Notes under the pieces: generated by a model | What the model was told of the DNA's origin: nothing | The model's database searches: none | Seen by the model: the letters and a program-made list of their open reading frames with translations, nothing else | Shown: one piece after another, positions 2,438 to 21,397 of the stretch | Position numbering within the stretch: the stretch's first letter is position 1 | Layout of the letters: every line of letters starts with the position of its first letter | Origin: Patescibacteria group bacterium UBA6017 | Lineage (GTDB): Bacteria > Patescibacteriota > Saccharimonadia > UBA4664 | Assembly: GCA_002429485.1 (NCBI GenBank) | Contig: DIZX01000015.1 | Coordinates: forward strand, 256,197 to 320,196 | DNA length: 64,000 bases | Reading direction: 5' to 3' | Made by a program: the position numbers and the translations under genes

Positions 2438-3451
2438 ATGGCAAACACGCAGAAACGCGCCCTCATCACGGGCATCACCGGTCAAGATGGAATGTATCTC
2501 GCTGAGTTACTCCACGAGAAAGATTATCAAGTTTATGGACTAATTCGGGGTCAGCACAACCCCAAGCGGCACATCCTTGAGCAGCACTTCCCTTGGGTTG
2601 AGCTTCTCGAAGGCGACCTGTCCGATATGGGTTCGCTCATCGCCGCTCTCGAAGTCTCTCAGCCCGACGAGGTCTACAACCTCGGGGCCATCAGCTTCGT
2701 CGCCCTATCATTCAAGCAACCTGAGCTCACCGGCAACATTACTGGTCTCGGAGCTCTGCGCCTGCTCGAGGCCATTCGCGTGGTCGATGGTGGTAAGGGC
2801 AAGATGCGCTATTACCAGGCTTCCACCAGCGAACTTTACGGCAAAGTTCGTGAAACTCCTCAAAATGAGCTCACCCCCTTCCACCCGCGCAGCCCCTACG
2901 GCGTCGCTAAGGGCTACGCTCACTTCATGACCGTCAACTACCGTGAGAGCTACGGCATCCACGCCTCTTGCGGCATTCTCTTCAACCACGAATCTCCCCG
3001 CCGTGGCTATGAATTTGTCACCCGCAAGGTCACTAGCTCTGTAGCTCGCATCAAGCTCGGCCTCCAAAAGGAGCTCGTACTCGGCAATATCGACTCCCAG
3101 CGCGATTGGGGCTTTGCCGGCGACTACGTCGAAGGTATGTGGCGCATGCTCCAGCAGGACGAGCCCGATGACTACGTGCTAGCTACCGGTGTCACTCACC
3201 CCATCAGCGAACTCCTCGACCTCTCCTTCGCCGAAGTCGGCATCACCGACTGGAAGCCCTACGTGAAGCAAGACCCGCGCTTTATGCGCCCGGCCGAAGT
3301 CGACCTGCTTCTGGGCGACCCGAGCAAAGCCAAAACCAAACTAGGCTGGGAGCCTAAAGTTAAGTTCCCCGAGCTAGTAAAGATGATGGTCGCAAACGAC
3401 CTCGAAATCGAAGGCAAAAAAGAGCTCGGCTCCGCAAACTCTGGCGCTTAG
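2438..3451 (+). CDS. gmd: GDP-mannose 4,6-dehydratase.
   Basis: [38 protein letters not shown]... has the Gmd N-terminus and a Y-x3-K SDR core. The length is 337 aa. Confidence 0.95.
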
Positions 3452-3456
3452 GCGAT

Positions 3457-5874
3457 ATGTCGGGCGTAGAGAATCACGAACCTGGTGGTGGCTCCGACGA
3501 CCACGGCCACTTCCCGAATGTCGACGACCTAACAAACCAGGAAATTGCAGAGATCCCGGAGACAGACCGGGCCGACATCCGTACCCCTGAATTTGATGCC
3601 GGTTCTGTTGTTATAACCGCTTTGTCTGACTCTCCCGAAGGGTTCGAAGTTGCGACACACCAAAGTATCGGCAGAACGTCATCCATCGATGGTCCGTTGG
3701 AGCTAAACCCCGACCAACGCGCCAGGTTGGCGGCTGCCTATCAAGGAATGCCGAAATATACGGCCTTGCAAAATTCAGAGCGTGCTCGCAGCGCTCTGAA
3801 TTCGGCTATTCAATCTGGTGCACCCGATGCAGAAATTGACCAACTTCAGTCGGACTTCGACCGCGCCACCTCGGATCGAAGATCAACTCCGGTTGAGGGC
3901 GAGATAAAGTTTAACGGCGGAGATAGCGTAGAAGATGCCAAGAGCGTCGTTCGTGGTTTTGAGGCTGCTCTAGATGCCCGAAGGGCTCTTGGTGGGCAAG
4001 AAGTAGCAGACGAACCCACTCCGGCTCAGCTAGAAACTGATCTCGAACAAGCGACTGCAAATCTCGAGGCTCTCCAATCCGCATATAAGCAACGCGGCAA
4101 AAAAATTGGTATCCGAAACATCTCAGTAACCGACAACACTATTACCGCCGACGTCCTGTCGGTTCCATTCCCGGTATACAGCGAGCTCTCTAAACCTGAG
4201 AATTCTCAAGATATTCTTGATTTGAGTCGGACGTTGGGTGCGGCCATGATCCTTCACACGGCTGATGATAGGTTTATTATTCAGCATCGGGCGGTCGCCA
4301 CGCAGCGACTTCATGAGCCAAGTATGACGCGCGGCAATGCTAGTTACACCGACATTCCGGGCGCGAGTGCAGCCGGTTGGGTTGATTCGACCATGGCTCA
4401 ATCCAATCGCGAACCGGGCACCCCCGACCCCATCGACACCACATCTATAAAGGGCTTAATTTACAAAGAGGCCGGCGAGGAGCTGGGGCTAAGTCCGGAG
4501 CAGCTTGAGCAAATACGAATAGTTGGGCTCGCCGAGGACAAAGTTAAGCCCCATGACGAGTTCCTGCTCATTGGTTTCTCAAACTTGACCGCCGAACGGG
4601 TACGGGAAGCTTCGAGAACCTCAACCCGAAATAAAAACCTTGGCGACGCCGATTTTGAAGAAAAGTTCTTCGATATTGAAGCCTCCCCCCGGGCTGTCGA
4701 AATATTGGCGGCTCAGGTGCAGTGCCCGCTACCCCCTACTCATGCGGCAGCGTTGGTTGCCGCCGGCTATTCTCTGGAAGTCCAAGAGCACGGGGTCGAG
4801 GCAGCTGAGGAGTGGAAACGGCGAGTTGAGGCTCAGATGCAGGCAAATTATCGTCTAATGGACGAAATGGTCTCTACGTACTACGCCAAACATCCGGAAA
4901 GCCACAATCAAGTTCCTGAGCGTTTCTGGGGCAAATCAGTGCCGAGCAGAAACGTCAACGGATACGACCCCTCTTATACACCGAACGAGCAGGGGCTACC
5001 GAGTCTCATTGATGAGATGGTACGCACGGGGTTAGTCCAGGAGCGTCGTCAGCTCGTAGATAGCGCACTCATCTTTGATGTTGACGGTGTATTAACAAGT
5101 CCTGAGACCAATGAAATGCCGCCTGCGCTAATCCTGGAGATTTCCGAAAAGCTACAGCAGGGGATACCGATTGGCTTAAATACCGGTCGCTCAACTGGGT
5201 GGGTCAAAGAGCACGTGATCGAACGGCTTCTAACCAATAACGAAGACCGGATGTTGCTTTCAAATCTCGTTGTAATCGGCGAAAAAGGTGGAACGTGGAC
5301 GCACTTTGACGACAAAGGGAATGAGAAAGATGGGAGTGTTAAGTCGATTTCCATGCCCGAAGAGCTAAAAGATCGGGTGAAGAGCCTCATCGAAGAAAAA
5401 TACTCGGATTGCATGTTCATAGATGAGACTAAGCAAACTATGTTGACCGTCGAGATGCGTCCAGGCTTCAACTTGGCCGAGTTCACCCGCCGCCAGGCTC
5501 AAATTGTTCCTGAGCTCGCTGCGATACTCTCTGACGCCGGTCAAACCGACACGTACAATGTGGACGCTACTACCATCGCCACAGATATAGAGAGTTCCCA
5601 TGTCTCAAAGGCCCTCGGCGCACAAAGGTTCTTGCAGTGGCTCGATGACCTAGAGGTTAACCCCGGTGAATTTGAGGCCGTTGGCGACAGTCTCTCCGAC
5701 CTCGCCATGGCCGACGAGTTAGATCGAAGAGGTAAAAAAGTTAAGTTTGTTTTTGTTGGCGATCCCACTAAATTCGAGGGAGTTAGCAGGCAATATGACA
5801 TCGAAACCCACCAAGGCTTCGACAGGGGAACTCTTGCATACCTGGATAGGTTAGACGGTCATTCTGCGAAATAA
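3457..5874 (+). CDS. 805-aa multidomain protein. The N-terminus is acidic with a coiled coil, the central segment is Nudix-like, and the C-terminus is a HAD-superfamily phosphatase domain.
   Basis: HAD motif I is IFDVDGVLT, motif II is LNTGRS, and motif IV is VGDSLSDLAMADE. The central KEAGEELGL resembles the Nudix REUxEExGU core, but the flanking Nudix positions are not conserved. The ORF begins 6 nt after the gmd stop. Confidence 0.5.
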   Translation: MSGVENHEPGGGSDDHGHFPNVDDLTNQEIAEIPETDRADIRTPEFDAGSVVITALSDSPEGFEVATHQSIGRTSSIDGPLELNPDQRARLAAAYQGMPKYTALQNSERARSALNSAIQSGAPDAEIDQLQSDFDRATSDRRSTPVEGEIKFNGGDSVEDAKSVVRGFEAALDARRALGGQEVADEPTPAQLETDLEQATANLEALQSAYKQRGKKIGIRNISVTDNTITADVLSVPFPVYSELSKPENSQDILDLSRTLGAAMILHTADDRFIIQHRAVATQRLHEPSMTRGNASYTDIPGASAAGWVDSTMAQSNREPGTPDPIDTTSIKGLIYKEAGEELGLSPEQLEQIRIVGLAEDKVKPHDEFLLIGFSNLTAERVREASRTSTRNKNLGDADFEEKFFDIEASPRAVEILAAQVQCPLPPTHAAALVAAGYSLEVQEHGVEAAEEWKRRVEAQMQANYRLMDEMVSTYYAKHPESHNQVPERFWGKSVPSRNVNGYDPSYTPNEQGLPSLIDEMVRTGLVQERRQLVDSALIFDVDGVLTSPETNEMPPALILEISEKLQQGIPIGLNTGRSTGWVKEHVIERLLTNNEDRMLLSNLVVIGEKGGTWTHFDDKGNEKDGSVKSISMPEELKDRVKSLIEEKYSDCMFIDETKQTMLTVEMRPGFNLAEFTRRQAQIVPELAAILSDAGQTDTYNVDATTIATDIESSHVSKALGAQRFLQWLDDLEVNPGEFEAVGDSLSDLAMADELDRRGKKVKFVFVGDPTKFEGVSRQYDIETHQGFDRGTLAYLDRLDGHSAK

Positions 5875-5920: not shown

Positions 5921-5971
5921 AAAAAACTCCATAAAAAGGCAAAACACCCCGCCGACAAGTAGTCGGCGGGG
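5921..5971 (-). terminator. Intrinsic terminator for the minus-strand cupin/rmd-like operon.
   Basis: A hairpin CCCCGCCGAC-aagta-GTCGGCGGGG at 5947..5971 is followed on the minus strand by a U-rich tract (plus-strand A-tract 5921..5946). Confidence 0.5.
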
Positions 5972-6000
5972 CTGCGAGCGTGTTGCTCGCGGGGTTGGGC

Positions 6001-6402
6001 TCATACACGGACGAGTTTCCAGGTGTGGGTCCCCAGGTCCTCGTACGAGCAGCTCGTGGATGCCACGAGGGTGAACGGTCCATCCACCGGGGTGAACGTG
6101 TGTGCAACCCCTCGCGGGATCTGCACTGCGGCCGGTGCGACGAGTAGCGTCTGATTCACGAGGTGTGAGCCTTCCCAGACGTCCTGCGTGAACAGAATCG
6201 CCTCACCATCGACGAGCGTGAAGTGTTCGTCTCCGTCGTGGTAGTGGTTCCCCAGCGGGTCAGCGTTGGCGTTGGCCTTGATGACTGTCGTTCGCACGAC
6301 GCTTCCGTCTTCCGCCGTGATCGTGGATTCGTGAATCGATCGACGATCATCTTCGTGGACCAGGGGCATTTCGGCGTCCAGCACAACATAGAACATGTTC
6401 AT
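6001..6402 (-). CDS. Cupin-fold protein, probably a sugar-nucleotide 3,4-ketoisomerase or epimerase-like (FdtA/WxcM type).
   Basis: A 133-aa protein with the cupin metal motif HYHDGDEHFTLVDGEA...H, located between an SDR sugar reductase and gmd. Confidence 0.45.
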   Translation of the reverse strand: MNMFYVVLDAEMPLVHEDDRRSIHESTITAEDGSVVRTTVIKANANADPLGNHYHDGDEHFTLVDGEAILFTQDVWEGSHLVNQTLLVAPAAVQIPRGVAHTFTPVDGPFTLVASTSCSYEDLGTHTWKLVRV

Positions 6403-6500: not shown

Positions 6501-7430
6501 CTAGCCCTCAACCCTCGCCCGCCAATCCTCCAGCGCCTCGCCCAGCGTCTGTTCCAAGGCAATCCCAGGCTCCCAGCCCGTATCCGCCTTTAGCTTCCCG
6601 TAGTCGCCATAAATCTCCGGCGCATCCACCGGCCTTACCTTGGATTCATCCACCACCGGCTTCAAATCGGAGTTCTTGGCATGCGCCAACAGACCCGCTA
6701 GGATATCGTTTCCGCTCGCCGAGCGTCCCGAGCAAATGTTGTAGGTCTCCCCGTTCTTGCCCTTCTCCAGTAGCGCTATATAGGCTCGTACGATATCTCG
6801 CACGTCGGTGTAGTCCCGCCGAGCGGACAAATTACCCACCGCAATCGTCGTCGCTCCCGACTTTCCGGCCTCGGCCACCTGTTTTGCCAGGTCGGCCACT
6901 ATAAATCCTTCGTTCTGCCCCGGCCCAATGTGGTTAAACGGCCGGGCGATCACATACTCAAACCCCCGTACCCCGTAGTATCCGGCCAGCTCTTCCTGCA
7001 AGCGCTTGCTCACGGAATACGGCGACGCGCACTTCACCCGCGAAGTCTCGGTGAGCGGCAATGGGGAAGTGGGGTCATACAAACTGCCGCTGCTCACAAT
7101 TACAAACCGCGGCTTCGCCCCCTGCGCCACCGCTGCCTCAAATAAGTTCAATTCAATCCCGCCATTCACCTCGATGTAATGCATCGGCGCATCAAACGAC
7201 GGCCCCACCGCCGCCAACCCCGCCAAATGCACCACCCCGTCGATCTGAGTGAAGTCGAGCGTGTCCACCTGGGCCCGGTCTGTGAGATCGAGGCTGGCAA
7301 ACGTCAGCCCTTCGGGTAATTCGCTCTTCCCCTTGCTCCCCGTAGCCATCACTTGATGCCCAGCTTCCAGCAGAGCACTCAATAAATGCGGCCCCACAAA
7401 TCCATTCGCGCCCGTAACTAATACTTTCAT
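6501..7430 (-). CDS. NAD(P)-dependent epimerase/dehydratase family. It may be a GDP-4-keto-6-deoxy-D-mannose reductase (Rmd-like).
   Basis: MKVLVTGANGFVGPHLL has a Rossmann GxxGxxG, the catalytic YSVSK (Y-x3-K) is present, the length is 309 aa, and the gene sits in the same locus as gmd. Confidence 0.65.
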   Translation of the reverse strand: MKVLVTGANGFVGPHLLSALLEAGHQVMATGSKGKSELPEGLTFASLDLTDRAQVDTLDFTQIDGVVHLAGLAAVGPSFDAPMHYIEVNGGIELNLFEAAVAQGAKPRFVIVSSGSLYDPTSPLPLTETSRVKCASPYSVSKRLQEELAGYYGVRGFEYVIARPFNHIGPGQNEGFIVADLAKQVAEAGKSGATTIAVGNLSARRDYTDVRDIVRAYIALLEKGKNGETYNICSGRSASGNDILAGLLAHAKNSDLKPVVDESKVRPVDAPEIYGDYGKLKADTGWEPGIALEQTLGEALEDWRARVEG

Positions 7431-7558: not shown

Positions 7559-8362
7559 GTGAAACAATTCTTTAGCAATCTAGCCAATCGATATCGCTAC
7601 TCCCTGATCCTGCTTCGGCAGCTGGTTATTACCGACTTCAAGCTTCGGTACCAAGGCTCAGTACTTGGCTATGTTTGGTCGCTGCTCAAGCCCCTCGCCC
7701 TTTTTTCAATTTTGTACGTCGTCTTCGTCAGATTTCTAAGGTTTGGCGTCAAACCGGTGCCCTTGTTCCTAGGCATTGTGCTTTGGACCTATTTCGCCGA
7801 AGTCACTATGCAGGGTATCAACTCAATCGTGGGTCGCGGCGACCTTTTACGAAAGCTTAACTTTCCCCGCTACGTCATAGTTCTTTCTACCGCCTTTTCA
7901 GCATTGATCAACTTATTCCTCAATATGATTGTGGTAGGAGTCTTCATGGTCTTCACACATACTGCCCTTCGCACAGAAGCCCTTCTGCTGCCGATATTGA
8001 TAGTTGAACTCTTCGTTCTCGCAGTATCGCTGGCATTTTACCTGAGCGCGCTATTCGTTCGCTTCCGGGACCTCAGTCATATCTGGGAGTTAGTTTTGCA
8101 GGCAGCCTTCTATGCGACACCTATTATGTATAGCCTGAATTATGTTCCCGCCAAATATGCCAAATTCCTAATCCTTAACCCCTTGGCCCAAATCATCCAA
8201 GATTCCCGGTATGTCCTCCTCGATCCAAGCTCTCAGACCATTACTAGCTTCTACTCCAACCCCGCCATTCGATTGGTTCCGATTGGTCTTGTCGCAACAT
8301 TCGCTGTAATTTCAGTTATGTATTTCCGCCGTCGGTCACGCTTCTTTGCGGAGGAGGTTTAA
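7559..8362 (+). CDS. wzm: ABC-2 type polysaccharide exporter permease (Wzm/KpsM/TagG family).
   Basis: 267 aa and 6 predicted TM segments. The typical ABC-2 N-terminal amphipathic region is present, and the gene lies immediately upstream of the ATPase. Confidence 0.85.
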   Translation: MKQFFSNLANRYRYSLILLRQLVITDFKLRYQGSVLGYVWSLLKPLALFSILYVVFVRFLRFGVKPVPLFLGIVLWTYFAEVTMQGINSIVGRGDLLRKLNFPRYVIVLSTAFSALINLFLNMIVVGVFMVFTHTALRTEALLLPILIVELFVLAVSLAFYLSALFVRFRDLSHIWELVLQAAFYATPIMYSLNYVPAKYAKFLILNPLAQIIQDSRYVLLDPSSQTITSFYSNPAIRLVPIGLVATFAVISVMYFRRRSRFFAEEV

Positions 8363-8365: not shown

Positions 8366-9562
8366 ATGGGCGCAAAAAGTAACGACATCGCAATTAGCGT
8401 AAATAATGTTTCAAAGAACTTCGTGCTGCCACACGAACGCATTGATACCATCAAAAGCACCTTCGTCCAGATGTTTGGCAGTAGCAACCGGGAGGTCGAG
8501 GTCCAGCACGCGCTTCGCAACATCAGCTTCGAAGTCAAAAAGGGGGAGTTCTTCGGTATCGTCGGGCGGAATGGCTCAGGTAAGAGTACTCTGCTCAAAA
8601 TATTGGCCGGGATATACCAACCATCCCACGGCAAAGTAGATGTGGTCGGAAAACTCGTACCCATCATTGAGCTGGGGGTCGGCTTTAATGGTGAACTTAC
8701 TGGTCGCGAGAATGTCTATCTCAACGGTGCTCTTTTAGGTTTTTCCCGAAAAGAGATGGAAGGCATGTATGCCGATATTGTCGAATTTGCCGAACTTGAA
8801 GAGTTTATGGATCAGAAATTGAAAAACTACTCCTCGGGCATGCAGGTCCGTTTGGCGTTTTCACTGGCTACTCGTGCCCAGGCCGACATTCTCCTCGTCG
8901 ACGAAGTCCTGGCTGTCGGCGATGCCGATTTCCAGCGTAAGTGCTTCGACTACTTTAAAAAGCTCAAAAAAGCTGGCAAGACGGTCGTATTCGTAACCCA
9001 CGATATGAGTGCAGTTCGCGAGTATTGCGGTCGGGCCATTTTGATCGATGACAGCCGTATTGAGGCCAGTGGAACTGCCGAAGAGATCGCCTCTGCCTAT
9101 ACCCGGCTGTTTACCCATAAAGTATCTGGAGTGAGTGGCTCTCAGTCGGATATGCGCTGGGGTGATGGCCAAATTAAGTACACCAAAGTGACTGCTTCAG
9201 TCGATGATGCCAGCAATCAGATCATTATAGATACCACCGTTAAAGCGATGGCCGATGTACACGAGCCGATTTTTGGATTTGCCATCAAGACTGGCGCCGG
9301 CGTAAATATCTTAGGGACTAACACCAAACTCAAGAAGATGTCTGCTAAGTCGATGCGAAAAGGCGAGACAGTTCGGCATATTTGGCGCTTAGATAATATC
9401 CTTGGGGATGGGACATTCTCGGTTTCCGCTGCAGTTGTTGCGGATGATAATGTGACAGTCCACGATTGGTGGGAAGATGCCAGTACGCTGACGATATTTA
9501 GGCCTGAGCACACCCCCTACGAAATCGAGCCCGACATATCCGTTGAGCGAAGTGATGGGTAG
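8366..9562 (+). CDS. wzt: ABC exporter ATP-binding protein Wzt with a C-terminal carbohydrate-binding extension.
   Basis: Walker A is GRNGSGKST, the signature is YSSGMQVRLAF, and Walker B is ILLVDE. About 150 aa beyond the nucleotide-binding domain is consistent with the Wzt C-terminal glycan-binding domain. Confidence 0.9.
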   Translation: MGAKSNDIAISVNNVSKNFVLPHERIDTIKSTFVQMFGSSNREVEVQHALRNISFEVKKGEFFGIVGRNGSGKSTLLKILAGIYQPSHGKVDVVGKLVPIIELGVGFNGELTGRENVYLNGALLGFSRKEMEGMYADIVEFAELEEFMDQKLKNYSSGMQVRLAFSLATRAQADILLVDEVLAVGDADFQRKCFDYFKKLKKAGKTVVFVTHDMSAVREYCGRAILIDDSRIEASGTAEEIASAYTRLFTHKVSGVSGSQSDMRWGDGQIKYTKVTASVDDASNQIIIDTTVKAMADVHEPIFGFAIKTGAGVNILGTNTKLKKMSAKSMRKGETVRHIWRLDNILGDGTFSVSAAVVADDNVTVHDWWEDASTLTIFRPEHTPYEIEPDISVERSDG

Positions 9563-10721
9563 TCGATCTAAGACGAGGCTATTCATAGACGCCGGGCCAA
9601 TATCTACCCCTCGCATGAGCGGGATTGGGCATGCAACCCTTGAGCTTATACGTACCCTAGGCTCAATGGAAATCTTCGTTCGGGATTATGAATTGGTTCT
9701 GGTTGGCAGTATTAGGGCGCGTGCCCAGCTCGAAAAGCTAAATCTTCCCAGCGTGAAATTCGCCCTGCTTCCTCTACCCACCAGGGTTTTTAACCGGGCC
9801 CCCGGAACATGGTTTGCACCTTTCCTAGATCTGTTTATCGGTCGGGGGATATATCTATTCACCAACTATCGCGCCTGGCCATTATTACGCTCGCCTTCCA
9901 TCACCTTTATCTATGATGTGAGCTATATAACACACCCAGAAACGGTTGGAATTCGAAATCAGCGTTTTTTAAGTAATTGGGTCCCCCGTTGGATCAAACG
10001 CAGCACAAAAATTGCCGCTATTTCAAGAAGTGCAGAGAAAGAGATCGAGCAATATCTTCGCGTTGAAAAAGACAAATTAGTTTATGTGCCGTGCGGTGTC
10101 GACACGATCCAGTTCTCCTCCCGCCCTCCTGCTGAGGTCAAGAGCCTGTCTGAGAAGTACTCTCTCTCCGAAAATTATATTTTATATCTTGGAAATATTG
10201 AGCCGCGGAAAAACCTGGCCCGTCTTGTCCGCGCTTATCGCCAGCTTCCCTCCGAGTTAAAACAGATGCATCCGCTTCTGCTCGTGGGCGGAGGTAGCTG
10301 GCAAAATTCGGAAATTGATGCCGAGATTGCAGCTGCTTTGCAGGCAGGGGAGCGCATTATTCGTCCCCAACAATACATTGAGGATGCGGATTTGCCCGCC
10401 CTGTACTCGGGGGCTGTAATGTTGGCGCATCCCGCTATCTATGAAGGCTTTGGTTTTACTCCGCTACAAGCAATGTCGTGCGGCACGCCGGTGATGGCCG
10501 GCGATAATTCTTCGATGCCAGAAGTTGCTGGAGGTGCCGCGCTCATGGTAGATGTTGCTTCAGAAAAGCAAATGACCCATACTATGCATACGATCCTTAC
10601 AGATAAGGCGGTTCGGGATCGCCTCAGATTGGCCGGTCCGAAACGCGCGCAACATTACACTTGGGCCGCTAGCGCGGAACGCCTGCTGAGCGCCATAAAC
10701 AGCATGAATTCAACCAAATGA
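9543..10721 (+). CDS. Glycosyltransferase, family 4.
   Basis: The EGFGFTPLQAMSCGTPVMAGDNSSMPEV motif is typical of GT4. The start may be at 9555. Confidence 0.85.
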   Translation: MSEVMGSRSKTRLFIDAGPISTPRMSGIGHATLELIRTLGSMEIFVRDYELVLVGSIRARAQLEKLNLPSVKFALLPLPTRVFNRAPGTWFAPFLDLFIGRGIYLFTNYRAWPLLRSPSITFIYDVSYITHPETVGIRNQRFLSNWVPRWIKRSTKIAAISRSAEKEIEQYLRVEKDKLVYVPCGVDTIQFSSRPPAEVKSLSEKYSLSENYILYLGNIEPRKNLARLVRAYRQLPSELKQMHPLLLVGGGSWQNSEIDAEIAAALQAGERIIRPQQYIEDADLPALYSGAVMLAHPAIYEGFGFTPLQAMSCGTPVMAGDNSSMPEVAGGAALMVDVASEKQMTHTMHTILTDKAVRDRLRLAGPKRAQHYTWAASAERLLSAINSMNSTK

Positions 10722-11767
10722 ACCAGCTCATTTCATACGCCCAAAATCGCGAAGATATCATTATTGACGCGTTTTTTGATTACAAAGACGATGGGTTCTA
10801 CCTGGATGTTGGGGCCAACTATCCAGTCGAAGCGTCGGTAACCAAACGTTTCTACCAGCGGGGGTGGCATGGTATAAATTTCGAACCGAATGTTAAGTTA
10901 CACGGCCTCCTAACTGCCGACAGACCTCGAGACACGAATCTGTGCCTAGGCATTGGGGCTGTCGATGCCGAAACTACCTTTCGGCAATACGACGCCGCAG
11001 ACGGGTTGTCTACTTTCTCTGAAACCGAAATGCAGACCTTGGACCCAAGCTATGTGGATCTAAAAAAGGATTATGTCGACATCAAGGTCCCGGTTCGCAC
11101 CCTGGCAAGTATAGCCAAGGAGTATTTGGAGGGGGTTCAGGTTGATTTCCTCAAGGTTGATGTTGAGGGTTTTGAGTATGATGTGCTCGCGGGCAACGAC
11201 TGGAATATCCTGAAACCTGAGGTCATATGTATCGAAGCCAACCACGTCGACCGGGACTGGCACCCAATCCTGTCTAGCCACGGCTACTCGCAATTTTTTA
11301 ACGATGGCCTCAACGAATATTATGCCCAAGAAGACTCTCCTCGCCTGAAGGCATTTAAATTCCCCGAAAAAGTCCTCATGAAAGGCAGCGTAGTTCCTTA
11401 TCAATCGCAAAGTGAGCGCAGTTGCGTGGATATTGAGCAACTCATTAGCGAAGAGGCCTCAGTGCTTGTTGAGCCACACGTGGGGCCCAAGAAACGGGCG
11501 ATTTTTCATGCCTATGCACTTCGAAGCGCGGTAGAGGATATATTCGTTGAATCAATTATGCTTTCTCGACGGGCAAAACTGCAGCAAAGTCTAGTGAAGG
11601 CAGTATCCTCATCCTCTACATTACGTCCTAACGCACTAGTAGAGAGACTGGTACCCGTGCCTCAACCCAACTCAACCCGAATTTTGATAAAAAGAGTAGT
11701 ACTAAGAGCTCTTTACCTATTCAATGAACTCACTATGGCGATTGTGGTATATGCAAAAAAAAGTTAA
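10718..11767 (+). CDS. FkbM-family SAM-dependent methyltransferase.
   Basis: YLDVGANYPVEASVTKRFYQRGWHGINFEP resembles the FkbM domain core (DVGAN...G). The gene overlaps the upstream GT by 4 nt. Confidence 0.65.
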   Translation: MNQLISYAQNREDIIIDAFFDYKDDGFYLDVGANYPVEASVTKRFYQRGWHGINFEPNVKLHGLLTADRPRDTNLCLGIGAVDAETTFRQYDAADGLSTFSETEMQTLDPSYVDLKKDYVDIKVPVRTLASIAKEYLEGVQVDFLKVDVEGFEYDVLAGNDWNILKPEVICIEANHVDRDWHPILSSHGYSQFFNDGLNEYYAQEDSPRLKAFKFPEKVLMKGSVVPYQSQSERSCVDIEQLISEEASVLVEPHVGPKKRAIFHAYALRSAVEDIFVESIMLSRRAKLQQSLVKAVSSSSTLRPNALVERLVPVPQPNSTRILIKRVVLRALYLFNELTMAIVVYAKKS

Positions 11768-13370
11768 CACCATTATTTTTGATCTCCGGCTGCTTCAGAC
11801 CGGCGCGTGGTATCGAGGCATGGGCCGCTACACCGCGGCACTACTTGGAGAACTTCCCGGGGTAATTCCAAAGGGGACTCGGTTAGTTGGGCTGTTTGGG
11901 ACTGATCTCCCCTATGCCAAGGAACGAGCCGATGAGGTGAGGAAGATATCTCCAGGGATCGAAACTGTTGTGCTCAAATTTAAAAAAGGCAGCAGCATAC
12001 CCGCAGAACGATATAATGCCGCAGCAACCTCTGCCTGGGTGAAGCAAAATGTCGTCGGCGAAGTTAATTTTATTGCAGCTTCTATTTTTAGTTTCGACTT
12101 TCAACCGTTCCTACTGCATGGAGCACGTAACTCTGTCATCTTCTACGACCTGATTCCTTACAAGAATTGGGATATCTTCGCTAATCATTTTCCACTCGAA
12201 GAGTATTTCAAGAGGTTCTCGTATATATATTCTGCCGACCATCTGTTCGCCATCTCAGGGGCGGTCCGTCAGGATTTAATCGGCCTGCTCGGGGTCAATA
12301 GCGGGCGCATTACCAACATTATGGGCGCGGCCATTCCCGCGGCATTACTCGATGATACCAATGAGCAGGATGACACAGCTCTGCTTGATCAGCTAGCAGG
12401 ACAGCGGTATGTTTTGTTGCCCGGGGGGGCCTCGCCTCACAAGAACATGTATCGTGCAGTTGCTGCTTTTGATATCTTCAATAAGAACTTTGGCGATACC
12501 TTTAAATTAGTTATTAGTTCAAACTACCCTGAACATATGCGACGGAATCTTCAAAATATTTCTCCAAATATTTTATTGAGCGGGGAGGTGTCCTCGGATA
12601 CTTTGGCCAAGATGTATGGCGACGCTGAGGCCGTTATGTTCCCTTCACTCGACGAGGGCCTCGGCCTACCAATCCTTGAGGCCGCTATGCATGGTAAGCC
12701 CGTTGTTTGCTCGGACATACCTGTCTTTAGGGAGTTTTCGGATGATTTTTACTTTTTTGACCCGAAGTCTCTGGACTCGATCGCAAGGGGGCTCCTCCAG
12801 GCCGTAGTTGACGCCAGTGCCGGTATAAACTACGCAGATAAATATAGAGGGATTAACGATAAGTTTTCTTGGCACCAGACCTCAAGGTCATTCGTCGAGG
12901 GGCTTACCGGTTTTCCCTCAAGAGAGCTATCCCGAGACCATCATGATATTCTTATCGAGTTCGACACCGAATATGGCGATATAAAGCAAATAGGGCAAGT
13001 CCTTGAGCAACATGAACTCGGTGCAGTCACACTCTGGGCTGATACTTATATTGAAAAAAATCGGCCACGGCATGAGTTGCCACTCGTCCAGCGTCATTTT
13101 TTGCGCTCTAACGACATTGTTAGCTATGTAGCGTCAAAAGGTTCTCCCGTCGAATCTCGTTCGGTTATCTTTACCGGTAAAAGCCTCTATACCGCATATT
13201 TTGCACTCAAATATGCAAGTAGCATTATTTGCTCGAAGTCGGATATGCGACATGCGATTAAGCGATTTTTAGGGTTCGCCGGAGCGCAACAAGCCTCGGA
13301 ACATGAGATTGATGCCTTAACCAAATTGGTGTCTCCAGAAATATCGAATGTAGGGACAAAAGGTGAGTAA
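11751..13370 (+). CDS. Glycosyltransferase family 4 with a ~150-aa C-terminal extension of unknown function.
   Basis: ORF 11724..13370. The likely start is MQKKVNTIIFDLRLL at 11751. The GT4 motif is SLDEGLGLPILEAAMHGKPVVCSDIPVFREF. Confidence 0.8.
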   Translation: MQKKVNTIIFDLRLLQTGAWYRGMGRYTAALLGELPGVIPKGTRLVGLFGTDLPYAKERADEVRKISPGIETVVLKFKKGSSIPAERYNAAATSAWVKQNVVGEVNFIAASIFSFDFQPFLLHGARNSVIFYDLIPYKNWDIFANHFPLEEYFKRFSYIYSADHLFAISGAVRQDLIGLLGVNSGRITNIMGAAIPAALLDDTNEQDDTALLDQLAGQRYVLLPGGASPHKNMYRAVAAFDIFNKNFGDTFKLVISSNYPEHMRRNLQNISPNILLSGEVSSDTLAKMYGDAEAVMFPSLDEGLGLPILEAAMHGKPVVCSDIPVFREFSDDFYFFDPKSLDSIARGLLQAVVDASAGINYADKYRGINDKFSWHQTSRSFVEGLTGFPSRELSRDHHDILIEFDTEYGDIKQIGQVLEQHELGAVTLWADTYIEKNRPRHELPLVQRHFLRSNDIVSYVASKGSPVESRSVIFTGKSLYTAYFALKYASSIICSKSDMRHAIKRFLGFAGAQQASEHEIDALTKLVSPEISNVGTKGE

Positions 13371-14670
13371 ATTAATAGTAGACATCACGCAGTTAGTGAA
13401 CTGGCAGGGTAAACTCACCGGCATACCCCGGGTGATGGACGAAATCGCCAGTAGGTATGCGGTATCTGAAAATGATCCCCACTTTGTCGCCTGGTCCGCC
13501 CCGCTTGGCGGCTTTGAGCCCGTTGATCTCAAGGTATCAATGGGCAGACGGCAAACAACTGTGATTCCTCAGGTAGCTTCGCCAGAGGTCGGGCATACAG
13601 ATAGTTACTCTCTCGTCCATCGAGCCCTGCGGAAGGGAAAGAGGCTAGCCGCGGGAGCTTCTCGCCGCGTCGGCATATATGAATACGCTAACCGGGTTGC
13701 TGGACCGTACCTTCGGCTCCAAAGCAGTTTTGAGACCCCGCGTTCACTCGTGACTCCCGCCCATGGTGATACCCTGTTGATTTTATGGGGGGAGTGGGCC
13801 GACGATACTTATATTCGCCGCATAGTTGAGCTAAAGGCCAATGGGGTCCTGCTAGCCCAGGTCTCCTACGATATGCTCCCTGCTGTTACCCCGCAGTATT
13901 CGGGTCATTCCACCGCACCATTCATCCGCTACAACCGAGAGATCCTCCCAATATGCGACCTCGTCTTGTCTATATCTGAGCATACCCGCCAGGACATAAA
14001 GGTCTGGCTTGGCGAGCAGGGTCTCAAAGTTCCGCGTATCGAAGTTATTCGGCTTGGTGATACGCTCACTAATAAACACGCCATCCAGCCCCAAGATCCC
14101 TCATTTGATAGCGCTGGGCTTATGGGCGGTGACTATATTCTTTGCGTCGGGACAATTGAGGCCCGAAAGAACCACGCTCTTCTCTACTACGTGTATAAGT
14201 TGGCCAAAGAACGCGGTATTAAGCTACCGAAATTGATAATTGTTGGCCGGCGCGGGTGGTTGACGGAAAACATCTTTGAGCTAATCACGACCGACCCCGA
14301 TACGGCCAACAAGATCATTCCTTTGCTGGAGACCAGCGACGACGAGCTTACTTGGCTATATCGTCATTGTAGTTTCACGGTGTACCCTAGTTTCTATGAA
14401 GGCTGGGGGCTGCCCATCGCAGAGAGCGTAGCGCATGGGGTGCCATGTATAAGCAGTAACACCAGCAGTATGCCTGAAATCGCCGGCTCGCTTATCGATT
14501 ATTTTAGCCCGGCTTCCACCGAAGAGTGCTTGGGCGCTATCATGGGGCTTACAGATCCATCTAAACTTGCGGACGCCAAGCGCCGCGTTCGGCAATATAA
14601 GATCACATTGTGGGACGAAACTTTTATCACAGTTGAGCGCTTAATAGGAGAGCTGAAAAATGCAAATTAA
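13363..14670 (+). CDS. Glycosyltransferase, family 4.
   Basis: YPSFYEGWGLPIAESVAHGVPCISSNTSSMPEIAG. It is a paralogue of 17039..18346. Confidence 0.85.
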   Translation: MSKLIVDITQLVNWQGKLTGIPRVMDEIASRYAVSENDPHFVAWSAPLGGFEPVDLKVSMGRRQTTVIPQVASPEVGHTDSYSLVHRALRKGKRLAAGASRRVGIYEYANRVAGPYLRLQSSFETPRSLVTPAHGDTLLILWGEWADDTYIRRIVELKANGVLLAQVSYDMLPAVTPQYSGHSTAPFIRYNREILPICDLVLSISEHTRQDIKVWLGEQGLKVPRIEVIRLGDTLTNKHAIQPQDPSFDSAGLMGGDYILCVGTIEARKNHALLYYVYKLAKERGIKLPKLIIVGRRGWLTENIFELITTDPDTANKIIPLLETSDDELTWLYRHCSFTVYPSFYEGWGLPIAESVAHGVPCISSNTSSMPEIAGSLIDYFSPASTEECLGAIMGLTDPSKLADAKRRVRQYKITLWDETFITVERLIGELKNAN

Positions 14671-15838
14671 GATTCTCAATATAACAACTCAGCATGAAGT
14701 CTGCGGCATTGCGAAGTATCAGGAACAATATATGGAAGCCCTGAATGATCACGAGGGTATTAAGTCGGACCTATTTCCGTATTCTCCGAATATAACAAAG
14801 CTCATGTCTCGGGCCCAGTTCTCTGCGGTTCTTGCGGAATTTGAACAGCAGCTCCAAGATTACGATATTCTGCATCTACAGCATGAGTTTGCTTTTTATC
14901 GTGGCAATCAGCTTGGTCAGTATTTTGATGTCGCCAAGAAGCTTGGCAAAAAAATAGTAGTTACAATTCACACCTCGCCCGAGATTGTCCATTTGCCCGC
15001 CGTTAGCCCTCGGGGTGTCCGTAGCGGCCTACTATTTCTGAAAAATATTAGCGCAGAGCGTCATTTTGATCAAAGTTTCATATCGCCTATGCATCAAGCA
15101 GATCGTATTCTCGTTCATAATCTTCGGACTCATCACGTTCTGCTTGACCTCAAGCTATCCGCCGACAAGGTGAAGCTTATTGAGCTCCCCGTACCAATGC
15201 TAGGTCAAATCTCGCCATCGGCCCGGCTACACAAAGCGCTATCGGTAAAGTCAGGCGATGTCCTAATTGGTATAGTTGGCTTTGTTGCGAAAGTTAAAGG
15301 GGTAGATCATGCAGTTCGTGCGCTGAGCTTTTTGCCGGATAACTATAAATTAGCGATTATTGGAGGGATCCATCCTCAGAGCGCCGATATGGGTTATCTC
15401 GACTACGTGTGCGATATAGTCGTGCAACATGGGCTTCAAGACAGAGTTTATATTACAGGGTTTGTGCCCGAAAACGATGAGCTCAATAGGTTGATTCGGG
15501 AGTGCGATATATGCGTGTACCCATACGAGCAGCATTATTATGCCGGAGTATCGTCTGCGGCACTTGCCGATGCTTTTGCGAACCATAAGCCGGTAATTGC
15601 TTATCCCACGGCCGCTTTCCAAGAGCTAAACACGCATAATGAGGCGATGATTCTCTGTAAATCGTTCAATTATTATGAATTAGCCCGTGAACTCAAGGGC
15701 ATCAATATTGAGGCCGCCCGGAAAGCTTCAACGCTTTTTGCGGTCGGACATTCGTATCCAAAGGTGGCGCCAAAGGTCATATCTGCTTATGAGAATCTAC
15801 TTTCCGGTGTACGGCAACAGACCGATGCAAAGGATTAG
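14660..15838 (+). CDS. Glycosyltransferase (GT-B, GT4-like).
   Basis: YPYEQHYYAGVSSAALADAFANHKPVIAYPT. The N-terminal half is a Rossmann-like domain. Confidence 0.7.
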   Translation: MQIKILNITTQHEVCGIAKYQEQYMEALNDHEGIKSDLFPYSPNITKLMSRAQFSAVLAEFEQQLQDYDILHLQHEFAFYRGNQLGQYFDVAKKLGKKIVVTIHTSPEIVHLPAVSPRGVRSGLLFLKNISAERHFDQSFISPMHQADRILVHNLRTHHVLLDLKLSADKVKLIELPVPMLGQISPSARLHKALSVKSGDVLIGIVGFVAKVKGVDHAVRALSFLPDNYKLAIIGGIHPQSADMGYLDYVCDIVVQHGLQDRVYITGFVPENDELNRLIRECDICVYPYEQHYYAGVSSAALADAFANHKPVIAYPTAAFQELNTHNEAMILCKSFNYYELARELKGINIEAARKASTLFAVGHSYPKVAPKVISAYENLLSGVRQQTDAKD

Positions 15839-17042
15839 TTCAAAGCGAGTCCTTATTCTAGGGACATACCCGATCGCTCAGCCGCAGCATGGGGGCCAGA
15901 AGCGGACCCGGGCTATCCTCGACTTTTACGCTGATATATTCGCCGAGGTCAAATATGTTGCGGTATTTTCGCCGAAAGATTATCCGGCTTCAGGTCGCGA
16001 TGACATCGCCTTTAACCCGCCGATCAATCAAGAACACCCCGAGGACAGCCTCGTTTCGGACTTGGCCCTCGGTCGAGCCATCGCCTCCGACCCAGGTGTT
16101 AAGGGAAAAATTGTTAAGTTACTCACTAGATATCGGCCGGACATTATTCAGGTCGAGCAGCCATATGTGTATTCGGGCCTCGCCGAAACACTTACTGAGC
16201 TAGGATTGAATCCAGCGATAATATACAGCTCCCAGAACGTTGAATCTCAGATGAAAGAGCAAATGCTAACCGCGGCCGGGTGCAATCGGGCGACGGTCAA
16301 TCGATATTGCACCCAGATTCAAGAACTCGAGCAAGGTTTAGTCAAATCGGCGGACTTGGTCATTGCCGTAAGCAAGGAGGATGCGGCGCAATTCACGAGC
16401 TATGGACCTCGTCGAATTGTGCTGGCCCCGAATGGCATCGCTCGCTCAGTAGTCTCTCCCTCCTCGCTCAAATACTGGGGACGACATTTGGCAAAGCGCC
16501 ATGTTGCTCATCTGGCGATCTTTGTTGGCAGCGCTCACCTTCCCAACTGGGAAGGCTTCCTTGAAATTATTGGCCCCAAGCTGGGTTTTCTGCCCTTTGG
16601 AACAGAAATTATGATTGTCGGCGGAGTCGGCGGGATGGTTAATAGCTACCGATTCAGCCCTTGGTTCTCGCGGGTTGGCTTCCTTCAGCGCGCTGAAGTC
16701 GTTGGGAGGGTAGATGAGACCAGTCTGGCTGCACTGCTTTCTCTCGCTAAAGTAATCATCCTGCCCATCACCACCGGCGGTGGGTCCAACCTCAAAACCG
16801 CGGAAGCAATACTCTCCGGCAAGAAGATCGTCGCCACGCCATTTGCCTTTCGAGGGCAAGAACAATTTCAGCACCTGCCCGGCGTCGATATCCAGAGTAC
16901 TCCGGAGGGTTTTCGTACGGCACTGGTTGCTGCCCTGGAGTCGTCTGAGCCCAAGCGAAGTCCTCAAGATAAGCAGACTGCCGGCCAGGTAGTCTGGAGT
17001 GAAACTCTTAGGCCGTTAACCATGGAAGTGAACAAACTATGA
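15825..17042 (+). CDS. Glycosyltransferase (GT-B fold).
   Basis: ORF 15687..17042. The likely start is MQRISSKRVLILGTY at 15825. The motif is ILPITTGGGSNLKTAEAILSGKKIVATPFAFRG. Confidence 0.7.
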   Translation: MQRISSKRVLILGTYPIAQPQHGGQKRTRAILDFYADIFAEVKYVAVFSPKDYPASGRDDIAFNPPINQEHPEDSLVSDLALGRAIASDPGVKGKIVKLLTRYRPDIIQVEQPYVYSGLAETLTELGLNPAIIYSSQNVESQMKEQMLTAAGCNRATVNRYCTQIQELEQGLVKSADLVIAVSKEDAAQFTSYGPRRIVLAPNGIARSVVSPSSLKYWGRHLAKRHVAHLAIFVGSAHLPNWEGFLEIIGPKLGFLPFGTEIMIVGGVGGMVNSYRFSPWFSRVGFLQRAEVVGRVDETSLAALLSLAKVIILPITTGGGSNLKTAEAILSGKKIVATPFAFRGQEQFQHLPGVDIQSTPEGFRTALVAALESSEPKRSPQDKQTAGQVVWSETLRPLTMEVNKL

Positions 17043-18346
17043 AGCGACCCCGCGTCTGGATTGATCTGAGCGATATCAGCACCTGGAAGGGTCATTACAC
17101 GGGCATTCAGCGCGTCGTAGTGAGTCTTAGCGGCCAATTTGCGGCCAGCGAGGAGGATGTGCGTTTCTTCGTTTACAACCAACGGCGCAACGAGTTCCTG
17201 CGCACTCAGCTATCTACTATTACACGCCCAGAAACCGACGACATGCCCGCCCCCGACCGGGCTAGCTCGCTAGGGGTCAGGCTAAAAGCTCTTATGCGCT
17301 GGACGTACGCCCATACTCCGACACGAATCCAGCGAGTTGTTCCGCCTGAACGCCGGAGGCAAATCCGAGCCGCTGGTGGCAAGATGATTAGCTCCCTACG
17401 GGCAAATGGGCGCTCCACAAGCCTTCCGACCGATGGGCCCGCCCAATTTGAGCGCGGAGACATTGTCCTCGTTCTCGGGGCAGCCTGGGAGCGGCCAGGC
17501 CTACTGCCCTCGCTAGCGAAACTCCGCCAAGACCATGGGATTAAACTGCATTGTTTAATTTACGATCTCATCCCCGTAATTCAGCCTCAATTTTTTGGTC
17601 CTGGGCTACCGGAGCGATATACCAAGTTCATGTTTGAGCTTGCGGCAAATTCCGACGGCATCATGGCCATCTCACAGTCCACCAGTCGCGATTTTGGGAC
17701 ATTTTGTACCTCTGTTGGGATAATAGCGCCGCCGGTTAGTGTCATACGGCTTGGCGATAATCCCGAGCTCCAGCCCGTGAAATCGGTACCAGTCGTAGGC
17801 ATCGAATCCGAAAGCTATATTCTTGCGGTTGGGTCTTTTGAAGCCAGGAAGAACTACGCCCTTCTGTACAGTGTCTGGAAGCAGGCCGCCCTCAACGGGC
17901 AAATCCTTCCTCGTTTGGTTATCGTTGGTTCTAAGGGCTGGGCAGCAGGGGATACGCTGGCAGCAATGCAGCTAGATCCGGACGTAGCAGAAGCTATCAC
18001 TGTTCTGGGAGGCATCAGTCGCGCTCGTCTGACCTGGCTGTATCAAAACGCGATGTTTACGATTTACCCTTCTACATACGAGGGCTGGGGGCTTCCGATA
18101 GCCGAGTCTCTTGCCTACGGTAAGCCATGTCTGGCCTCTAATACGTCGTCGATGCCGGAGGTCGGAGGGGATCTGGTGGATTACTTCAACCCCCTCGATC
18201 CGCAGGGTTGTCTCTTGGCTATCAAAGCCTATTTGGAGCCCGGCGCCTTAGCCGCTCATCACGAACGCATCCAGTCCGAATTCAAGACCACCTCTTGGGC
18301 CGCAACCCTCCAACAGGTTCAGCGCAATCTCGCGGGTGAAGAGTAA
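17039..18346 (+). CDS. Glycosyltransferase, family 4.
   Basis: YPSTYEGWGLPIAESLAYGKPCLASNTSSMPEVGG. The length and architecture match 13363..14670. Confidence 0.85.
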   Translation: MKRPRVWIDLSDISTWKGHYTGIQRVVVSLSGQFAASEEDVRFFVYNQRRNEFLRTQLSTITRPETDDMPAPDRASSLGVRLKALMRWTYAHTPTRIQRVVPPERRRQIRAAGGKMISSLRANGRSTSLPTDGPAQFERGDIVLVLGAAWERPGLLPSLAKLRQDHGIKLHCLIYDLIPVIQPQFFGPGLPERYTKFMFELAANSDGIMAISQSTSRDFGTFCTSVGIIAPPVSVIRLGDNPELQPVKSVPVVGIESESYILAVGSFEARKNYALLYSVWKQAALNGQILPRLVIVGSKGWAAGDTLAAMQLDPDVAEAITVLGGISRARLTWLYQNAMFTIYPSTYEGWGLPIAESLAYGKPCLASNTSSMPEVGGDLVDYFNPLDPQGCLLAIKAYLEPGALAAHHERIQSEFKTTSWAATLQQVQRNLAGEE

Positions 18347-20186: not shown

Positions 20187-20909
20187 CTAATACTTAGTGA
20201 GCAAGTTAAAACGAATAATTTCCCAAATAGCCTTAATGCCGTCACTTACACCGATCTTCTTGCCCTCTTCCTTGCTCCGGCCATAGTAGCTAATCCCTAT
20301 CTCGTAAACGGCCGCTTTGCTCTTGGCAATCCGAGCCGTGATCTCGGGCTCAAAACCGAATCGCTGCGCCTTAAGATCTTGTGCCAGTCGACGCGCCAAG
20401 TCGCCTCGCATCATTTTGTAGCAAGTCTCCATATCGGTGAGGTTGAGACCAGTCAGCGCATTCGAAAGAAAAGTCAGGAACTTATTTGCAACTTGGTTGC
20501 GGTAGTAAATAATCCTGTGTGGTTGTCCGCCAATAAACCTTGATCCGTAGACAACATCAGCTTGTCCGCGCTCGATCGGGTATAGGAGGCGTTTATATTC
20601 CTGGGGATCATACTCTAGGTCGGCATCTTGAACTACCACGACGTCGCCCGTAGTCTCGAGGATGCCACGCTTAAGAGCCGCCCCCTTACCCTGGTTGCGG
20701 TCTTGCAGTAGCACGCGGATAGTTTGGCTATTCGCAGCCAACTTCGACAGGATCCCTCTTGTGCCATCCGTGGAATAGTCGTCCACGATTACGATTTCTT
20801 TTTTGGTTGCCCCCAGGTCAACGGCAGCAACCTCTTTAAGAATCTTTTCGATCGTCGCCCGCTCATTGTAGCAAGGGATCACGATGGATAAGGTGTCGAT
20901 TTTTGCCAT
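20187..20909 (-). CDS. GT2 polyprenyl-phosphate glycosyltransferase (GtrB/DPM1/ArnC-like).
   Basis: [10 protein letters not shown]... and [15 protein letters not shown] (DxD region) match this family. The length is ~240 aa. Confidence 0.85.
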
Positions 20910-20932
20910 CATGCCTCAATGTCATTATACTG

Positions 20933-21397
20933 ATGGTTATGTTATCACAGTCGACGGTGGGTCGCACTCACTACATCTTGCGGCGACTTCTTAAGATCGA
21001 CTTCGTTCGCTTCAGCCTTGTTGGTGGTTGTGGGTTTGTCATAAATCTTTCCATACTTATGCTGCTATATAGGGGCGTTCACGTCTCAATTTTTCTGGCT
21101 CAATTGATCGGGTCCGAGATTGCACTATTTTTCAATTTCATCTTGCACCACAAATGGACTTATAAACACCGGAACATCGTTAGCTCGATACCGACCCTGC
21201 TGGTGCAATTTCACGCCAGCTCTTGGGCGGCTACGTTGGGCAGTGCCGCGTTGGTAGGCGCTCAAGTAAAGTACCTTCACCTAAATTACGTTGTAGCCCT
21301 GGTCGCCAGTTCCGCCGTTGTGCTGTTCTGGAACTACACTTGGGCAAGGTCGGTAATCTGGCGGCATCATCTCGATACCGACCGGGAACCGGCATGA
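20933..21397 (+). CDS. GtrA-family small membrane protein (putative flippase component).
   Basis: A ~150-aa protein with 4 TM segments. FVRFSLVGGCGFVINLSILMLLY is GtrA-like. The gene is divergent from the GT2 gene, and its stop overlaps the ugd start (ATGA). The start could instead be 20903 or 20939. Confidence 0.6.
   Translation: MVMLSQSTVGRTHYILRRLLKIDFVRFSLVGGCGFVINLSILMLLYRGVHVSIFLAQLIGSEIALFFNFILHHKWTYKHRNIVSSIPTLLVQFHASSWAATLGSAALVGAQVKYLHLNYVVALVASSAVVLFWNYTWARSVIWRHHLDTDREPA

Follow-up and report, generated by a model that had tools for sequence, protein, structure and literature searches.

A Nudix module with a predicted NUDT22-like architecture fused to a HAD-IIB phosphatase domain and encoded directly after gmd in a patescibacterial genome

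The gene downstream of gmd

What kind of enzyme is encoded directly after gmd in a polysaccharide gene cluster of Patescibacteria group bacterium UBA6017 (GenBank assembly GCA_002429485.1), and what might it act on? The region examined, referred to below as the window, is a stretch of 64 000 nucleotides of contig DIZX01000015.1 (positions 256 197 to 320 196 of the forward strand), and positions are counted from its first letter. The gene in question, here called the target gene, is an open reading frame (ORF) at 3457–5874 (+) that starts with an ATG and encodes 805 amino acids (aa). Its product combines a Nudix module, which structure prediction likens to human NUDT22, with a HAD-IIB phosphatase domain.

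The gene and the Nudix-HAD fusion are real. The identical protein is found on contigs of two independent metagenomes, and 97 homologues, mostly of ~700 aa, were recovered at E≤1e-3, with values down to E 0. A preliminary description of the window had recognized a Nudix-like core and a HAD phosphatase in this ORF from the motifs FDVDGVLT, LNTGRS, GDSLSD and KEAGEELGL, and all four were located in the protein. It had also stated that no standard annotation fits the fusion, and this is still the case. Pfam and NCBIfam models match the HAD part only, and the public names of family members, where there are any, are 'hypothetical protein' or refer to the HAD domain alone, although one homologue has been labelled 'MutT (NUDIX family)' by the Joint Genome Institute (JGI).

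The gene immediately upstream, at 2438–3451 (+), is indeed gmd, for GDP-mannose 4,6-dehydratase (TIGR01472, 424 bits with a cutoff of 415; PF16363, E 8e-124). Its TAG stop codon ends at 3451, leaving a gap of 5 nt before the ATG at 3457. Downstream, an 11 bp G+C-rich hairpin at 5946–5972, a likely terminator, lies between the target gene and a convergent cupin gene, and the accompanying T-run was found on the minus strand. Because of the 5 nt gap and the position of the hairpin beyond the target gene, the two genes very probably form a single transcription unit.

We tentatively read the protein as a two-enzyme fusion that would degrade nucleotide sugars in two steps, with a GDP-hexose as the probable substrate in this organism, and that would serve either to control the pool of such sugars or to salvage them.

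A divergent Nudix module

The Nudix fold that had been proposed for the central region is present in the predicted structure. The AlphaFold2 model of residues 205–535, made with an alignment of 94 sequences, has a predicted local distance difference test score (pLDDT) of 93.3 and a predicted template modelling score (pTM) of 0.89, and the values for the full-length model, 90.9 and 0.86, suggest a defined domain arrangement. Residues 212–422 (4090–4722) comprise a β-domain followed by an α/β/α Nudix fold. When the central model was compared with the PDB using Foldseek, human NUDT22 came first (E 2.7e-9), followed by NUDT17, NUDT14, ADP-ribose pyrophosphatases and YffH of Escherichia coli. NUDT22, a UDP-hexose hydrolase, leads the structural matches by ~4 Z units, and the two-domain architecture, with an N-terminal β-domain ahead of the Nudix domain, superposes on it. 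As modelled, this is a very divergent Nudix domain that is closest in shape to NUDT22.

NUDT22 (PDB 5lor, 5lf9 and 5lou) hydrolyses UDP-glucose and UDP-galactose, yielding UMP and glucose-1-phosphate from UDP-glucose (PMC10101856). According to another paper (PMC5688067), it is a phylogenetic outlier and 'lacks a conventional NUDIX box'. An unconventional box is a property that it shares with the target protein. However, the two are 15–16 % identical in the structural alignment, and homology was undetected at the sequence level. NUDT22 is eukaryotic, whereas the target protein is bacterial and has features that go beyond NUDT22, namely a 127-residue helical insertion (residues 85–211), an extra helical hairpin with a conserved extended segment (residues 423–530) and the fused HAD-IIB domain.

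Enzymes of the NudF/NudK type (the E. coli ADP-ribose pyrophosphatase, 1g0s; the E. coli GDP-mannose hydrolase YffH, 3o6z; and a Bdellovibrio NDP-sugar hydrolase, 5c7q) also have an N-terminal β-domain followed by a Nudix fold. They convert nucleoside diphosphate sugars (NDP-sugars) to a nucleoside monophosphate (NMP) and a sugar-phosphate, the chemistry proposed here for the target protein. However, their 23-residue Nudix box is perfect and they are matched by PF00293 and PF28549, neither of which holds for the target protein.

In E. coli colanic-acid clusters, a Nudix GDP-mannose hydrolase is encoded near gmd. This enzyme, Gmm (NudD, WcaH; PDB 2i8t), has a Nudix fold and is thought to regulate GDP-mannose, but it is a single-domain protein of ~160 aa that has no HAD fusion and produces GDP and mannose by cleavage at the sugar C1. 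No close similarity of the target protein to this ~160 aa type was found in either structure or sequence.

The motif KEAGEELGL is at residues 337–345 (4465–4491), in a helix (residues 328–343 in the model) that carries the Nudix box (residues 328–345; 4438–4491), with K337, E338, E341, E342 and G344 in register with a canonical box. Relative to the 23-residue signature GX5EX7REUXEEXGU the box is incomplete, consisting of the C-terminal half only (K337-E338-A-G-E341-E342-L-G344-L345). In the upstream half, T329 is found at the position of the glutamate in 'E x7 R', and the canonical glycine (G302 or G307) is ~20 residues too far upstream due to an insertion of about that length at 308–326. This agrees with the earlier observation that KEAGEELGL fits REUxEExGU and that the flanking positions of the box do not. 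An hhalign comparison of the family profile with a canonical Nudix protein encoded at one of the related loci (L004, see below) was not significant (E 0.044), and the single aligned stretch was the Nudix-box helix, in which K337, E338, E341, E342 and G344 were placed opposite R, E, E, E and G, and T329 opposite the first glutamate.

Among 231 family proteins that were mapped, the residues of the Nudix module are conserved as follows: R278 in 211/214, N294 in 206/214, E338 in 206/219, E341 in 195/218, E342 in 217/218, H366 in 213/219 and E402 in 207/219. In the family alignments, residues 212–530 form an extremely conserved core that precedes the HAD domain. The last part of this core, residues 423–530 (4723–5046; pLDDT >90), includes a CPLPPTH motif containing H429, a helical hairpin (residues 427–478) and the extended segment VPERFWGK..RN..GY.P.YTPEEQGLP. 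H429 (216/220), Q512 (189/191) and G513 (189/189) are conserved here, and this part is assigned to the Nudix module because members that lack a HAD domain (P0092–P0097) carry it too.

The preliminary description had also included a 250 aa acidic N-terminal extension. The acidity was confirmed, as the N-terminal 211 residues have an isoelectric point (pI) of 4.30 and a net charge of −23, and the whole protein is likewise acidic (pI 4.67). However, the length had to be revised to 211 residues, and residues 44–84 within them belong to a NUDT22-type N-terminal domain and not to an extension. In it they form a conserved β-hairpin (3586–3708; PEF..G.F.I..LS..PEGF....GRT). The residues ahead of the hairpin (1–43; 3457–3585; pI 4.17, pLDDT 37–75) are a variable acidic tail that is unaligned in the homologues, and the hairpin is followed by the variable insertion at residues 85–211 (3709–4089), which forms four long helices in the model (assigned with DSSP) and coincides with alignment gaps in most homologues. 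An acidic helical insertion of ~66 residues (residues ~140–205; 3874–4071; pI 4.25) is confined to the target protein and its three closest homologues, and the version in P0004 is still longer. A weak PDB match to Gtf2 (E 0.03) is probably a chance one.

The HAD-IIB phosphatase domain

The C-terminal residues 531–805 (5047–5871) correspond to a HAD-IIB phosphatase domain with a C2B cap, which is inserted between motifs II and III. All four HAD motifs are present, bearing out the earlier assignment of a HAD phosphatase to the C-terminus: motif I is D541xD543 in FDVDGVLT (residues 540–547; 5074–5097), motif II includes T576 in LNTGRS (residues 574–579; 5176–5193), motif III is K718 (5608–5610) and motif IV includes D744 and D748 in GDSLSD (residues 743–748; 5683–5700). 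PF08282 is matched with 22.4 bits, just over its gathering score of 20.9. TIGR01484 (HAD-IIB) is matched with E 1.4e-7 by the whole protein and E 2e-8 by the isolated domain, although the scores of 31.8–34.5 are below its cutoff of 41.8. The catalytic aspartate pair, D541 and D543, is invariant in the family (132/132 for each), and T/S576 (131/131), K718 (128/131), D744 (128/131) and D748 (129/130) are conserved to a similar extent. For both catalytic residue sets, that of the HAD domain and that of the Nudix module, the conservation clearly points to purifying selection.

Searches of the PDB with the single sequence and with a HAD-containing family profile returned HAD-IIB proteins only, besides chance matches such as that to Gtf2. 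With the profile, the matches included PMM2 (E 0.004) and the trehalose-6-phosphate phosphatase T6PP (E 0.017). In the structural ranking, T6PP (17.3), Cof-type phosphatases (16.5–16.7) and MpgP (16.4) were ahead of the phosphomannomutase PMM (15.0) and the phosphoglucomutase α-PGM (14.9). Motifs II (NTGRS) and IV (GDSLSD) are those of Cof/SPP-type phosphatases, and the NCBIfam matches of the domain are to phosphatase subfamilies. As modelled, the best matches of the HAD domain are C2B-cap sugar-phosphate phosphatases.

With known HAD-IIB phosphatases (the OtsB T6PP, 6upb; Cof-type BT/YhaX, 3niw/3dnp; MpgP, 3ztw; BT4131, 1ymq) the domain shares the four motifs and the cap. However, it is 16–20 % identical to them and fits no substrate-defined subfamily, and whereas the known enzymes are free-standing or fused to a glycosyltransferase, this one is fused to a Nudix module.

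Size and distribution of the family

Of 1.84 billion cluster representatives, an exhaustive hidden Markov model (HMM) search using a HAD-free profile picked out only 256 at E≤1e-3, including 140 at E≤1e-30. The best 150 of the 256 matches (E≤1e-26) fall into two length classes, and ordinary Nudix proteins were not seen among them. When the 231 family proteins were mapped on sub-profiles, a HAD domain was found in 133, with a median length of ~700 aa. A further 97 (~40 %), with a median of ~400–420 aa, are HAD-less, and some of these are fragments. The fused proteins include one from CP064993.1, a 1.21 Mb Candidatus Saccharibacteria record.

The named sources of the family are Candidatus Saccharibacteria, Levyibacteriota and Curtissbacteria only, and this small family was found only in lineages of the candidate phyla radiation (CPR). 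Three metagenome-assembled contigs are labelled otherwise, namely L009 as Verrucomicrobiia and L010 and L018 as Gammaproteobacteria. However, the gene order in L009 is that of the gmd-linked, Saccharibacteria-like loci and the order in L010 is that of the Levyibacteriota loci. As synteny is shared with CPR loci, the labels or bins of L009 and L010 are probably wrong.

The literature that was searched yielded no paper connecting Nudix proteins with Patescibacteria, none connecting nucleotide sugars with a Nudix-HAD fusion and none on this family or a similar fusion. Both halves come from well-known hydrolase superfamilies, and as a kind of system the fusion is therefore not new. What is new is a structurally distinctive form, namely a bacterial NUDT22-like architecture that sequence profiles fail to see, that is joined to a phosphatase and that is confined to CPR lineages.

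Gene context

The context of the target gene was compared across 16 independent loci. In seven of them (L001, L003, L004, L009, L012, L013 and L014), gmd and/or rmd is found ≤10 kb from the target gene. The variation in gene order among these seven favours selection over inherited synteny as the reason for the linkage. In the Saccharibacteria-like loci, the target gene is within a cluster that includes gmd-rmd, the Wzm/Wzt genes and family 4 glycosyltransferase (GT4) genes, and this is not so in the Microgenomates loci. In the loci without gmd, no second conserved neighbour was found beyond local synteny among Levyibacteriota.

Two of the gmd-linked loci, L004 (10189–10722, −) and L009 (9406–9915, +), include a gene for a canonical 177 aa Nudix protein of the NudF/NudK type (NDPSase_N and NUDIX domains and a perfect box) between gmd and the homologue of the target gene. 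A canonical Nudix gene of this type is absent from the 64 kb window.

In at least three genomes, a few kb at most separate the cluster that includes gmd and the target gene from yidC and a gene for a KH/R3H (jag-type) protein (L001:196–5962, L004:16770–18142, L009:3839–5244 and L003:18140–18169). The L001 cluster is beside a presumed replication-origin region, as dnaN, dnaA and rnpA are also found there.

The HAD-less homologue P0093 (L005:1–17347) is surrounded by defence-like genes, namely two PLDc_2 genes, a radical SAM gene, a gene for a 1363 aa NACHT protein, a SIR2_2 gene and toxin-antitoxin genes. A role in anti-phage defence was considered because of this one homologue among NACHT, SIR2 and PLD genes, and was rejected, as PADLOC gave no meaningful match and P0093 was not recognized.

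Proposed activity and alternatives

If the protein degrades nucleotide sugars in two steps, the NUDT22-like module (residues 44–84 and 212–530) would bind an NDP-hexose and cleave the pyrophosphate to release an NMP and hexose-1-phosphate, with a divalent metal held by E338, E341 and E342, and E402 as a candidate extra ligand. Dephosphorylation by the HAD-IIB domain would follow, via an aspartyl-phosphate intermediate, and give free sugar and Pi, with D541 as the nucleophile, D543 as the acid/base and T576, K718 and D744/D748 as the further active-site residues. The NUDT22 reaction, from NDP-hexose to NMP and hexose-1-phosphate, fits the gene context of the target, though this context points to GDP-sugars and NUDT22 acts on UDP-sugars. 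A GDP-hexose is the likely substrate because the target gene is very probably co-transcribed with gmd and adjoins rmd, and this could be GDP-mannose, GDP-4-keto-6-deoxymannose or GDP-D-rhamnose. The enzyme would trim or clear the GDP-sugar pool that feeds a D-rhamnose-type polysaccharide and recover GMP. Control of GDP-sugar pools, which the preliminary description had suggested, is therefore a reasonable inference. Across the family, the protein may serve CPR bacteria in the salvage or house-cleaning of NDP-sugars.

A number of observations weigh against this interpretation. The Nudix box is disrupted in its N-terminal half, and residues 1–530 had zero Pfam or NCBIfam matches at E≤10, whether the whole protein, the central domain alone or the N-terminus alone was searched. 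Specifically, PF00293 (NUDIX) did not match the target protein at E≤10 and matched 6/39 relatives weakly (E 0.012 at best), and the HAD-free family profile found nothing at E≤10 among PDB sequences. Profile searches therefore retrieved the HAD part of the fusion, via PF08282, and missed the Nudix part. The nine loci without gmd, the named ones being from Levyibacteriota and Curtissbacteria, have unrelated neighbours, so a specificity for GDP-sugars cannot be generalized, and the linkage to gmd is limited to one clade. The presence of two Nudix types side by side in L004 and L009 implies that they are non-redundant, and hence that the role of the target differs from that of a canonical hydrolase. 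As ~40 % of members are HAD-less, the phosphatase step cannot be obligatory. Finally, full hydrolysis of an activated sugar beside the genes for its biosynthesis looks wasteful.

The varied housekeeping neighbours in the nine loci (sigma-70/DnaG; PBP, GAPDH and NrdR/RNR; SecG; defence genes) would suit an enzyme with a more general task, namely house-cleaning or salvage of nucleotide derivatives (ADP-ribose, NAD-derived or other NDP-X compounds) followed by dephosphorylation, with the adjacency to gmd being incidental or a clade-specific recruitment. The failure to find a second conserved partner and the presence of ADP-ribose pyrophosphatases among the structural matches are consistent with this. 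However, we consider it unlikely, as a UDP-hexose hydrolase is the top structural match, the linkage to gmd/rmd recurs with varied gene orders and the HAD-IIB relatives are sugar-phosphate phosphatases.

With the Nudix step left as proposed, the HAD-IIB domain could instead be a eukaryotic-type phosphohexomutase (PMM/α-PGM), which would convert hexose-1-phosphate to hexose-6-phosphate for glycolysis, or mannose-6-phosphate to mannose-1-phosphate for ManC, although this is rather improbable. Either product would be directly useful to an organism with a reduced genome, and human PMM2 is the best PDB profile match of motif I. A ManB-type mutase was not seen in the window, but manB was looked for in these 64 kb of the genome only. 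The phosphatases outrank the mutases structurally, the NCBIfam matches are to phosphatase subfamilies, and motif IV is the Cof/SPP-like GDSLSD and not the GDxxxxGGND of PMM.

The incomplete Nudix box and the failure of any profile to recognize the domain could also mean that it is catalytically dead and acts as an NDP-sugar sensor or scaffold in the regulation of either the HAD phosphatase or the adjacent pathway. This is very unlikely, because the near-invariance of E338, E341, E342, E402, R278, H366 and H429 in ~220 sequences is typical of an active site, the existence of HAD-less members indicates a separate function of the module, and NUDT22 is active despite its unconventional box.

We give little weight to the idea that the Nudix-like module is a transferase, moving the glycosyl or phospho-sugar part of an NDP-sugar onto a phosphorylated acceptor that the fused HAD-IIB domain then dephosphorylates. 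T6PP and MpgP, the closest HAD relatives, do dephosphorylate such products and are often fused to the synthase, and the canonical NDP-sugar hydrolase gene adjoining the target gene in L004 and L009 suggests non-redundant chemistry. The Nudix fold is capable of substitution at the sugar C1, as GDP-mannose mannosyl hydrolase carries this out. Were this the case, a Nudix fold would replace the glycosyltransferase in a 'synthase + phosphatase' glycoside pathway of CPR bacteria, making for example a D-rhamnosyl or mannosyl compound.

An EvaA-like NDP-hexose 2,3-dehydratase that acts on the Gmd product, GDP-4-keto-6-deoxymannose, and opens a branch to 2,6-dideoxy-sugars is suggested by the position of the target gene directly after gmd and by the fact that 2,3-dehydratases belong to the Nudix superfamily and use the products of 4,6-dehydratases (PMC8987622), but this least probable candidate was rejected for want of either profile or fold support, as the central domain has no Pfam match at E≤10, EvaA is not among the top 50–60 matches in any of the three fold searches, the conservation of the metal-binding Nudix glutamates resembles that in hydrolases, most Microgenomates loci lack gmd, and the fused phosphatase would have no part in that chemistry.

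Implications

An unannotated family, two-thirds of whose fused protein is missed by Pfam and NCBIfam models, gains a fold and a testable chemistry. NUDT22, which is regarded as a phylogenetic outlier and has a fold described as unique, would gain a bacterial structural counterpart that could inform the origin of this architecture and the working of the unconventional box. Recovery of an NMP, and possibly a hexose, would matter for the reduced genomes of Saccharibacteria and Microgenomates, and the target protein could affect the control of the polysaccharide at the cell surface, in this case a D-rhamnose-type glycan with a possible role in host-cell contact. For annotation, we note that the Nudix domain was revealed by structure prediction only, and that the single-sequence and family-profile HMM searches run here missed it.

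The polysaccharide cluster in the window

To the left of gmd, and separated from it by a VapBC-like pair (1714–2368, +) made up of a FitA-like ribbon-helix-helix antitoxin and a PIN-domain toxin, is a GT4 gene (495–1685, −). On the other side of the target gene, the convergent cupin-like ORF (6001–6402, −) encodes 133 aa with weak cupin matches only (Cupin_2; RmlC, E 0.2), and tblastn did not recover it from the other loci linked to gmd. It is followed by a gene for an rmd-like short-chain dehydrogenase/reductase (SDR), a GDP-6-deoxy-D-lyxo-4-hexulose reductase (6501–7430, −). The best solved relatives of this SDR, GDP-6-deoxy-D-mannose reductase (6x3b, E 3e-48) and Rmd (2pk3, E 4.5e-47), are separated from the next match by ~16 orders of magnitude. 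Based on the identity of gmd and the rmd-like SDR, the local pathway leads from GDP-mannose via GDP-4-keto-6-deoxymannose to GDP-D-rhamnose. Between rmd and the cupin-like ORF, ahead of the latter, there is a promoter-like site with a perfect (12/12) sigma-70 consensus, TTGACA-18-TATAAT, at 6486–6457 (−).

Next are wzm (7559–8362, +) and wzt (8366–9562, +), the latter with a Wzt_C domain, which encode an ABC exporter for polysaccharide, and six GT4 genes with an FkbM methyltransferase gene (9543–18346, +). The cluster is of the ABC-transporter-dependent type and resembles D-rhamnan clusters such as the common polysaccharide antigen (CPA) cluster of Pseudomonas. Genes for a GT2 glycosyltransferase, a UDP-glucose/GDP-mannose dehydrogenase and a UXS/ArnA-like SDR (20187–23694, both strands), and three genes for Acyl_transf_3 membrane acyltransferases (27277–36900, −), suggest a more complex or a second glycan. 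The conventional source of GDP-mannose is manC, for mannose-1-phosphate guanylyltransferase (30684–31718, +; PF00483 and PF22640; TIGR01479, 245 bits). Its presence led us to reject the possibility that the target gene occupies the 'wbpW slot' of a CPA-like cluster and itself makes GDP-mannose.

An Rfam scan of the window gave zero matches. The glycan region includes further large ORFs at 18390–20180 (−; 596 aa), 24312–27233 (+; 973 aa) and 31950–33731 (+; 593 aa), which have no Pfam match or Ig-like matches only. An ATP-citrate-lyase-like gene pair (44370–47449, −), with Citrate_bind, ATP-grasp, CoA-ligase and citrate-synthase C-terminal domains, was also found. A related ATP-grasp/CoA-ligase pair adjoins the target locus in L004 (11826–13743), and such a pair seems unexpected in a reduced CPR genome.

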